From a virus (lineage: Duplodnaviria > Heunggongvirae > Uroviricota > Caudoviricetes): DNA of 10,212 nt. A program made the translations under genes and the position numbers. The notes under the pieces were generated by a model that saw only the letters and a program-made list of their open reading frames with translations, made no database searches and was not told the DNA's origin. Shown piece by piece: positions 8,451 through 9,230 of this stretch (its first letter is position 1; the number at the start of each line of letters is the position of its first letter). The stretch is from IMG/VR virus record IMGVR_UViG_2606217104_000013; one strand, 5' to 3'.

Positions 8451-8678
8451 TAGTTGTTCATATTCTGATGACATGATAATTTCCTATTGAATAGAAAAAA
8501 TTAACACGACTCATTCTTATGACTGGAAAAAGCAATCATGCTAATAATCATTGTTGTTCCAGTTCCAAATGCAGCGAAATAATCACCAATATTTTTTCTA
8601 CCGGTTTCGACTTTGATGCTATATTCTGCTAACACCTAACTAACACTACGTTTCACACAGCAATTACATGGAAATAAC

Positions 8679-9026
8679 ATGACTATCAAAGCGACTGACA
8701 TAGAGATTCTTCATCGTTATGCTGAAGGGGTAATGGAACGTTCTAACCATCATGCAAAAAATGTTGGTGCAGCCGCTCTTACATTGCTAGGAGGTGTTAT
8801 CTGGAAAGCCCTGCCCGGATCAATCGAGATAAGAACGTATAACGGAAGTCTTGCAAATATGGTGTGGTGGCAAAGCGAAAGAACATTAAAAAATTATGCA
8901 ATCTCATACAACCATAATTCATGTGAAATTGAAATGAGAGATGAATCAGTCAAAGGTGCTGTATTATTTAGCATTTCCAACGAAACCACTCCAGAAAAAA
9001 TATTATCACAGCTTTCTGAGCTTTAA
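8679..9026 (+). CDS. Hypothetical 115 aa protein (orphan AT-rich moron on the opposite strand)
   Basis: ATG 8679 with GGAA 8 nt upstream; roughly 37% GC; no family recognised; GC-rich hairpin immediately after the stop. Confidence 0.5.
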   Translation: MTIKATDIEILHRYAEGVMERSNHHAKNVGAAALTLLGGVIWKALPGSIEIRTYNGSLANMVWWQSERTLKNYAISYNHNSCEIEMRDESVKGAVLFSISNETTPEKILSQLSEL

Positions 9027-9031
9027 TTAAA

Positions 9032-9049
9032 GGCGGTGCTAACACCGCC
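9032..9049. terminator. GC-rich hairpin (7-bp stem) directly after the 115 aa ORF; possible terminator
   Basis: ggcggtg-ctaa-caccgcc; U-tract is weak on the plus strand (cataccatt) and moderate on the minus strand (UUUAAUUAAA). Confidence 0.35.
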
Positions 9050-9230
9050 CATACCATTACTCCACATCTTACGCAACTTGATAATTATGCTCTATTAAAT
9101 ACCCACAATATTTCATCAATGCATGGGTCAGCTACAAAATGTTTACCGTGGTAATTCCTGTTTTCGCAACATCTCAAAAGAACAATAAACACTGTATTTC
9201 TTCAAGTAACGAAGAATCTTTCTTTGCCCG

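Follow-up and report, generated by a model that had tools for sequence, protein, structure and literature searches.

A VCH_CASS14-family gene set antisense between P and the nin genes in a DLP12-type prophage: a putative ligand-binding moron

What does a single gene of 115 codons do when it points against the early rightward operon of a lambdoid prophage? The question is raised by the window analyzed here, i.e., the whole stretch of 10,212 nucleotides, which is a portion of a DLP12-type lambdoid prophage inserted beside tRNA-Arg in E. coli. A preliminary description of this DNA had singled out an isolated plus-strand ORF of 115 aa, had recognized no family for it, and had proposed that it might be a moron with a role in, for example, superinfection exclusion or anti-defence. 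We examined whether the ORF is a genuine gene, what it encodes, and in which company its relatives are found.

A lone gene on a replaceable cassette

From P to the nin and Q genes, the 115-aa gene is the sole real plus-strand gene. P, the antirepressor, a HEPN pair, ybcN, ninE, ybcO, rusA, ylcG and Q all lie on the minus strand, which agrees with the earlier view of the ORF as embedded antisense in the early rightward operon. The annotated order in strain E2865 is int ... cI-like repressor, replication protein, P, the 115-aa gene, a P22AR-type antirepressor, a HEPN protein, a hypothetical gene, ybcN, ninE, ybcO, rusA, ylcG, quuD, an ompC-like porin, essD/rrrD/rzpD and iss. In the window, the HEPN pair occupies 6222-7018; the HEPN protein lies 1.6 kb from the 115-aa gene, matches PDC-M28A of PADLOC and overlaps a 133-aa partner. 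Of 5426 complete E. coli genomes, 181 contain the segment 8440-9140 (701 bases) at 99% identity or more, each in a single copy on the chromosome; EHEC strains labelled O26, O103 and O157:H7 are among the matches listed. The features of the locus are the following.

8679..9026, plus strand: CDS of a VCH_CASS14-family protein, 115 aa, ATG start, TAA stop (ORF list)
8670..8673, plus strand: Shine-Dalgarno-like GGAA, 5 nt 5' of the ATG (read from the sequence)
8617..8625, plus strand: candidate extended -10 element TGcTATATT, predicted start near 8632 (inspection by eye)
9032..9049, no strand assigned: GC-rich hairpin GGCGGTG-CTAA-CACCGCC, 7-bp stem, 5 nt 3' of the TAA (folding)
8505..9202, no strand assigned: cassette unique to the prophage type, ~700 bp, 36.5% GC (8480-9221) (blastn against L002)
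9202..9234, minus strand: remnant of ren, first 5 codons MTGKE kept (9220-9234), then divergent, with a stop after 10 codons (translations, blastn breakpoint)
8343..8504, no strand assigned: second copy (~90% identical) of the junction that normally precedes ybcN, the first copy being at ~6025-6180 (alignment, blastn against L002 and L003)
9231-9953, minus strand: P (ORF list and annotation)

The 115-aa ORF is a genuine gene under purifying selection. The ORF described earlier was found at 8679-9026, and the NCBI annotation has an identical CDS there, WP_000152742.1, named a "hypothetical protein". Among 1.84 billion representatives scanned, 282 homologous clusters at 50% identity were found (E <= 1e-3), nearly all of them of 110-120 aa. 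Compared with five prophage orthologues of 56-71% nucleotide identity, pN was 0.11-0.31 and pS 0.72-0.93, i.e., saturated, and dN/dS was 0.05-0.11 where dS could be computed. The CDS of the closest variant, L061 (96% nucleotide identity), differs by 8 synonymous and 6 non-synonymous changes, giving a dN/dS of ~0.24 as estimated from the change counts, and the conserved polar residues are all untouched by these differences. No member of the family turned up in 50,697 phage records searched with DNA and with protein, or in the BFVD viral models searched by structure; so far, the 115-aa gene has been seen in prophages, IMG/VR contigs and bacterial islands only.

A 44-aa minus-strand ORF at 8501-8635 was considered as a small toxin and rejected. 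It matched no family, and its comparison with L061 revealed an in-frame insertion, a non-synonymous change, an earlier stop and just one synonymous change.

Homology to L002, a sister prophage that carries ren, runs through P, ends at 9203 and resumes at 8343-8504 (blastn), thereby delimiting a unique cassette of about 8505-9202. As expected of a moron, the cassette is present here and absent from L002 with sharp borders (8504/8505 and 9202/9203). By sequence comparison, it replaced ren between P and the nin region. Lambda ren occupies the same slot after P, and its first five codons survive in the window; the 115-aa gene is unlike it in being unrelated in sequence and on the opposite strand. 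In other DLP12-type prophages, the same interval holds ren and two hypothetical genes or, alternatively, a DUF6864 pair, an IS481 fragment and an antirepressor.

The "repeat" that had been reported beside the gene is the junction copy at 8343-8504, which forms the left bound of the cassette; PGAP annotates its part 8343-8420 as a gene fragment. The two junction copies flank a block comprising the antirepressor and HEPN genes, which suggests that modules are exchanged by recombination at this conserved junction. L061 and the window share 96-98% identity over the cassette but no more than 76-88% over the antirepressor region beside it, a mosaic pattern. In this single close pair, the flanks of the cassette are as conserved as the CDS (97-98%).

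The composition of the cassette is also deviant. The GC content is 37.1% for 8460-9050, matching the value of about 37% given before, and 38.8% for the CDS, with a GC3 of 30%. The stretch that contains the gene, with 36.5-37.1% depending on the bounds taken, stands against 44.8% for the whole window and 47-56% for P.

Similar arrangements were found in other prophages, whose neighbourhoods the preliminary description had proposed to inspect. The orthologues of Citrobacter prophages are 72-78% identical, and these prophages have three replication modules, namely DnaB-type, O + DnaC, and DnaT + DnaC. There the orthologue stands alone on the plus strand, with the replication genes on one side and NinB/RusA/Q on the other, all of them on the opposite strand, and it often adjoins a DNA polymerase III theta homologue or DinI; no remnant of a theta-like gene was found in the window. 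The orthologue of L053 is located near int. Enterobacterial prophages of no fewer than four other backbones have the gene in the antisense slot at the replication/nin junction, and the gene opposes the early operon in every enterobacterial prophage examined. This recurrent placement across prophages, independent of orientation, supports the moron reading.

The concept of morons reportedly goes back to Juhala et al. in 2000, and lambdoid examples are lambda bor/lom and rexAB and HK97 gp15. Like them, the 115-aa gene appears as a small autonomous unit between conserved genes, with deviant composition and a hairpin at its end, patchily distributed among similar prophages and with an orientation that does not follow that of the operon around it. 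Unlike most exclusion morons, it has a predicted soluble product with no membrane segment, and its promoter and its expression in the lysogen are putative. The cassette-like occupancy, the deviant GC content and the recurrent antisense slot support the view of the gene as a self-contained accessory cassette of ~700 bp, in line with the earlier argument from isolation and composition.

Expression signals of the antisense gene

The ribosome-binding site attributed to the gene earlier is the GGAA at 8670-8673. Taken alone it is weak, and at the equivalent position the orthologues have AGGAA, AAGGAA or AAGGAG, a purine-rich stretch indicating that the translation signal is conserved. Farther upstream, the candidate -10 region is 97% conserved in L061. 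Its 11-mer GCTATATTCTG recurs as the -10 region of a minus-strand promoter-like site at 8200..8171, an identity that is not significant alone given the 1.5 kb searched. A promoter consensus scan yielded no more sites in the sequence than in shuffled sequence. The short AT-rich upstream region with its extended -10-like element would be the candidate source of a promoter. The gene opposes the early rightward operon, and for this reason the lysogen most likely produces its transcript independently of the neighbouring genes.

The hairpin noted directly after the stop codon stands out in folding analyses. On the plus strand, its 61-nt context folds with -13.6 kcal/mol (z = -2.97 relative to shuffles), and on the minus strand with -19.5 kcal/mol (z = -2.18). 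Read on the plus strand, the hairpin has no U-tract behind it; in the minus-strand direction, the U-rich tract UUUAAUUAAA comes next. Four orthologues (L052, L054, L055 and L057) each have a GC-rich hairpin of their own, differing from the others, immediately 3' of the stop codon. The hairpin at 9032-9049 could end the gene's own transcript, such that a transcript initiated at the putative promoter would terminate 3' of the stop codon. Read on the minus strand, it could also act in a tR2-like manner and stop transcription out of P, given the U-rich tract that comes after it there. In the lambda map, tR2 is at about this position after P.

Family, fold and ligand pocket

No family had been recognized for the protein in the preliminary description, a statement that does not hold. 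The protein matches the Pfam family PF18315 (VCH_CASS14) with 71.7 bits, compared with a gathering cut-off of 26.7, residues 12-104 aligning with positions 2-92 of the 97 of the model, and it matches PHROG 5959 ("unknown function") from end to end. The sole solved relative is PDB 3IMO, with E values of 1.3e-17 by single sequence and 3.9e-45 by profile, and the two proteins are about 34-40% identical, with a two-residue insertion between b3 and b4. Among curated models, no NCBIfam or PADLOC v2.0.0 entry matched the window protein, and no PADLOC entry matched its Serratia orthologue. [quoted passage not shown] By these matches, the 115-aa protein is a clear member of the PF18315/3IMO family, newly recognized as prophage-borne.

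3IMO is Vch_cass14, an integron cassette protein of Vibrio cholerae, whose crystal structure was solved at 1.8 A (PMC3548836). It is a dimer in solution, with the helix faces as the interface, and 20 hydrophobic residues form the walls of a pocket in each subunit that reaches a depth of about 15 A (PMC3548836). The pocket contains linear electron density that was left unmodelled, its ligand being given no identification, and at the polar mouth Tyr14, Arg21 and Asn60 form hydrogen bonds to acetate and water (PMC3548836). According to the authors, the density is unlike the components of the crystallization (PMC3548836). We add the caveat that the crystals were grown in PEG3350, so that the "ligand" might be a fragment of PEG. 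A literature search for PF18315, Vch_cass14 and WP_000152742 returned this structure paper of 2013 only (PMC3548836), and no phenotype for any member.

The pocket appears to be retained in the prophage protein. In the HMMER alignment to 3IMO, in which the numbering is equal through residue 64, Tyr14, Arg21 and Asn60 are identical. At each of the 20 pocket positions, the window protein has a hydrophobic or small residue, either unchanged or conservatively substituted; these include A5, L11, A15, V18, S22, A26, V29, A33, L36, L37, V40, I49, I51, V62, I75, Y77 and I84. Among 83 diverse members of the family, Y14 is conserved in 93%, R21 in 84% (with K in a further 11%), H24 in 87%, H25 in 94%, N60 in 95%, Y77 in 92% and H79 in 92%. 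W63, G38 and G93 are also highly conserved among them, as are the hydrophobic positions of the helices, and all family-conserved residues are intact in the window protein. The periodicity of the helix and strand suggests that His25, Tyr77 and His79 also line the mouth of the pocket.

The window protein has a pI of 6.1 and no membrane segment (maximum Kyte-Doolittle value of 1.40). A basic sheet surface has been described for 3IMO (PMC3548836), and we considered nucleic acid binding through such a sheet as a family trait. This idea is unsupported, as the family has a median pI of 6.4 and a charge near neutral, although the charge comparison has little power, the aligned portion of 3IMO itself having a net charge of -1. 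The basic surface is thus perhaps not family-wide, and the near-neutral window protein may differ from Vch_cass14 in this respect. The two are alike in that each is encoded by a single small gene on a mobile element and in that they share the gate residues and the pocket. They are unlike in setting: the window gene is flanked by P and the antirepressor in a lambdoid prophage, and hence lies outside an integron array, with putative expression signals of its own rather than in an attC cassette.

Surroundings of relatives and possible functions

We analyzed the genes around more distant members of the family. For GC-rich loci, the ORFs were called by our own script, and partners were counted by a scan for same-strand adjacency. 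All-against-all clustering of the neighbours identified no universal partner gene. The most frequent arrangement, found at 14 of 34 genome loci (Alphaproteobacteria), is a 165-aa gene, c11, which starts between -3 and +4 nt from the stop codon of the family member; a coupled pair of this type is also present in L068, a contig labelled Pectobacterium. The c11 protein has a weakly HEPN-like fold and ~140 homologous clusters, none of them named and none with a Pfam domain, and a sequence search of the PDB returned no match for it. A gene for a Fic protein usually follows c11, and then come genes typical of integrative conjugative elements (ICEs).

Other relatives are preceded directly, on the same strand, by genes of defence type. 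A Serratia relative, beside icd, has an AbiU/AIPR gene that ends 35 nt upstream, and at another locus 18 nt separate the end of a PDC-S06 AAA_13 ATPase gene from the family member, which is closely followed by a Zn-dependent phospholipase C gene and, farther away, by an integrase gene. DruA, GmrSD/HEC-05, an HNH nuclease, and type II and IIG-like methylases were found in the same upstream position, and still other relatives lie directly behind the anti-restriction gene ardC or behind a NADAR gene, the latter with Fic downstream. The ICE regions of relatives contain ParB-like and DUF932-like genes, and some relatives adjoin housekeeping-type genes.

Pooled ORFs of 42 non-redundant loci were scanned against PADLOC at E <= 1e-10. 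Within 2.5 kb of the family member, this identified DruA, GajB, MzaA, HEC-05, methylases and a restriction-modification control protein, and at 3.5-6 kb GajA (1e-231), QatB/C/D, a Pycsar cyclase, a CBASS-type cyclase, a type IIG restriction-modification enzyme and Cas1. These loci are defence islands or integrative elements. The association of the family with defence is strong in appearance and should be taken as a semi-quantitative lead, as the "far" control set came from the same islands and so is not independent.

Taken together, the explanation that we favour is that the 115-aa gene encodes a dimeric, small-molecule-binding protein, expressed in the lysogen, that acts in conflicts involving phages and other mobile genetic elements, a reading to which we assign a probability of about 0.5. 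By homology to 3IMO, the soluble, cytoplasmic product would form a homodimer of two-layer alpha+beta sandwiches, each subunit with a deep hydrophobic pocket ~15 A long whose mouth would be lined by Tyr14, Arg21 and Asn60. Most likely, the pocket would bind a small amphipathic ligand whose head group is anionic and which the protein would sequester, sense or possibly modify, and the setting would be the conflict among bacteria, phages and other mobile elements. The roles suggested at the outset, superinfection exclusion or anti-defence, are plausible. As the gene is antisense in all enterobacterial prophages examined, a protective role on the side of the lysogen is likelier for the prophage copy.

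A wider proposal, which we make tentatively, is that VCH_CASS14 proteins are widespread ligand-binding modules of ~113 aa in immunity and counter-immunity, solo on prophages, ICEs and integrons and attached to effectors in islands, and that the prophage copy alters infection through its pocket. The island effectors named in this proposal are AbiU, PDC-S06 with the phospholipase, and the HEPN-like protein with Fic.

Integron cassettes offer a precedent for small defence proteins on mobile elements. Among the V. cholerae integron cassettes without known function that were tested, 18% were phage-protective, and 16 integron defence systems have been reported, one of them with a protein of 64 aa (bioRxiv 10.1101/2024.07.02.601686). 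The likeness lies in the very small proteins on mobile elements and in the V. cholerae cassette that founded the VCH_CASS14 family; it ends there in that no VCH_CASS14 homologue is named among the 16 systems (bioRxiv 10.1101/2024.07.02.601686).

The same contexts can be read in the opposite sense, as those of counter-defence, with the protein serving a mobile element as a sponge for an immune signal or as an orphan, antitoxin-like blocker of a toxin effector. This is a serious rival, if an improbable one, because of the ICE, ArdC and NADAR contexts and because of the antitoxin-like position before the 165-aa gene. In the coupled pair with c11 (14/34), often followed by Fic, the family member is the small upstream partner, a layout resembling that of antitoxin and toxin. 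Other relatives lie beside orphan-looking methylases, and the ParB-like and DUF932-like genes of the ICE regions fit as well, as does the identity of the replaced gene, ren, which in lambda has a protection-from-exclusion function. However, c11 is absent from the window, whose copy has no partner gene and hence no adjacent co-transcribed toxin gene of the kind that an antitoxin would be expected to have. The opposition to the early operon in every enterobacterial prophage examined also favours expression in the lysogen over expression in early infection, no homologue was found in the 50,697 phage records, and many relatives are located in chromosomal islands, operon-like behind defence genes.

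The shape of the pocket bears on the question of sponges too. In fatty-acid-binding proteins and phage sponges, which are small soluble oligomers, an internal pocket has an Arg/Tyr pair at its mouth that grips a carboxylate, and the hydrophobic, linear pocket of the VCH_CASS14 fold appears unlike the nucleotide sites of known sponges, which would count against the counter-defence reading. The acetate at the mouth of 3IMO suggests a resemblance in the possible working mode by analogy, and no relationship of sequence or fold between these proteins and the 115-aa protein was detected.

A further explanation is one by host physiology unrelated to phages, according to which the cassette would be cargo of metabolic or stress benefit to the lysogen, as other genes of lysogenic conversion are, encoding a small binder of lipids, fatty acids or xenobiotics, or an enzyme. 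We regard this as improbable. A deep hydrophobic pocket with a carboxylate-binding gate is what such a protein might have (3IMO, PMC3548836), and the conserved cluster of His, Tyr, Arg and Asn could be catalytic. Integron cassettes and islands also hold many adaptive genes outside defence, a related prophage has a lipocalin-family gene near Q, and some relatives lie beside the housekeeping-type genes mentioned above. Yet the neighbours of the relatives included no conserved metabolic partner or operon, and they are mostly recombinases and defence-type genes rather than metabolic ones.

It is very improbable that the locus is primarily a transcriptional device, in which a convergent promoter and a bidirectional hairpin tune read-through from pR and P into the antirepressor and the nin/Q genes and the protein is secondary. 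The U-rich tract after the hairpin on the minus strand, ~180 nt past the stop codon of P and reminiscent of lambda tR2, and flanks conserved like the CDS between the window and L061 (97-98%) would fit such a device, but the flank conservation is that of a single close pair, the protein is constrained over distances at which synonymous sites are saturated, and the family is present in many non-phage contexts. Finally, the possibility of a spurious ORF or decaying pseudogene, which a weak Shine-Dalgarno sequence and an only putative promoter might raise and for which the preliminary description had named non-conservation as one sign, is already refuted by the Pfam, PDB and fold matches, the 282 clusters, dN/dS values well below 1 and the intact conserved residues.

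The reading of the 115-aa gene as a lysogen-expressed, ligand-binding protein is readily put to the test. About 3% of complete E. coli genomes have the gene, with no label beyond "hypothetical," and the family has a structure at 1.8 A, which makes the conserved gate residues ready targets for mutation. The recurrence of the family in prophage hotspots and defence islands makes this anonymous ORF one that can be tested cheaply. If it does affect phage infection, a ligand-pocket protein of 115 residues would join the tools of immunity and counter-immunity, and a function would be assigned to an orphan fold of structural genomics.

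Organization of the region left of the target cassette

The left border of the cassette that carries the 115-aa VCH_CASS14 (PF18315) gene is the second of two direct copies of the junction that usually precedes ybcN, each of which has a terminator-like hairpin. An antirepressor gene and a HEPN gene lie between the copies.

~6025-6180 and 8343-8504: two direct junction copies, ~90% identical to each other
8380..8363, minus strand: terminator-like hairpin of the second junction copy
6222-7018, minus strand: gene for a 138-aa HEPN-domain protein (Pfam HEPN; PADLOC PDC-M28A, 1.8e-7) with that of its 133-aa overlapping partner
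7978-8065, minus strand: C4 antisense RNA (Rfam, 82.5 bits)
8090-8162, minus strand: isrK Hfq-binding RNA (Rfam, 64.1 bits)
8200..8171, minus strand: strong promoter-like site (promoter scan)

As the copies bracket the antirepressor/HEPN block, they likely form a recombination joint for module exchange. Within the block, the HEPN gene and its partner share a 22-nt overlap; family searches with the 133-aa protein matched PHROG 5760 and nothing else. The two genes are a candidate toxin-antitoxin or defense pair, located in the same hotspot as the target.

The C4 and isrK RNAs, which together span 7978-8162 on the minus strand, are immediately upstream of the antirepressor gene. The 5′ part of the mechanical ORF at 7318-8163 (281 aa) thus coincides with both RNA genes, and the real coding sequence, according to the annotation, is 7318-7926. 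The antirepressor region is an RNA-controlled module of the P1/P7 or Gifsy style, residing within a lambdoid prophage.

Flanks of the cassette and state of the prophage

Two short reading frames adjoin the target gene.

8501-8635, minus strand: 44-aa ORF with a hydrophobic stretch, upstream of the target and divergent from it
9202-9234, minus strand: ren remnant, identified by comparing its translation with ren of a sister prophage

The 44-aa ORF is probably not a gene, as family searches gave no match and as, relative to the closest variant of the cassette (L061), it shows an insertion that preserves the frame, a Gly-to-Ser substitution, and a stop codon that falls earlier. At the opposite border, the ATG of the ren remnant overlaps the stop codon of P, and its first five codons (MTGKE) are those of the sister prophage's ren, after which the frame diverges and then stops.

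P itself has lost approximately its first 24 codons to an IS insertion: the sequence at ~9861-10212 matches the ends of IS3-family elements present on many Escherichia coli plasmids and chromosomes, and a full-length P, as in strain E2865, would extend to 9932. Judging from this truncation, this copy of the prophage is probably replication-defective.

The late region carries two further plus-strand cargo genes, of which the one for the porin lies just after AT-rich DNA (27% GC at 2551-2850).

725-1066, plus strand: iss/bor lipoprotein gene
2857-3939, plus strand: ompC/nmpC-like porin gene

Genomic neighborhoods of VCH_CASS14 relatives

In Citrobacter prophages (L052-L054, L073-L075), a divergent gene for DNA polymerase III theta (HolE/Hot-like, PF06440) is found ~50 nt upstream of the target orthologue on the opposite strand; that of L053 contains an in-frame stop. 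A search of the window for traces of the theta gene found none.

Domain fusions are rare in the family (P0053, 377 aa; P0119, 252 aa). One has a repeated N-terminal region of ~250 aa ahead of the VCH_CASS14 domain, and another continues past the domain into a long Ala/Lys-rich tail. A further protein, P0159, looks like a chimera with the N terminus of an IS transposase.

Alphaproteobacterial integrative elements (L015-L027) and one contig labeled Pectobacterium (L068) share a conserved three-gene module, in which VCH_CASS14 is followed by an uncharacterized 165-aa helical protein and then Fic.

L027, 6346-6840: example of the three-gene module
L068, 2446-4029: example of the three-gene module

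The middle protein (~140 clusters) matched no Pfam domain and gave only a weak HEPN-like fold signal; R5, Q7, R43, G46, D53, R84, and K89 are invariant.

Two other arrangements involve known defense candidates. In Serratia (L062-L066, 4218-6348), a small insert near icd contains an AbiU/AIPR gene and, 35 nt downstream of it, VCH_CASS14. In L079 and L080 (2299-6354), adjoining an integrase gene, a PDC-S06 AAA_13 ATPase gene ends 18 nt upstream of VCH_CASS14, which is followed by a Zn-dependent phospholipase C gene. Both arrangements are operon-like and link the VCH_CASS14 family to these defense candidates.
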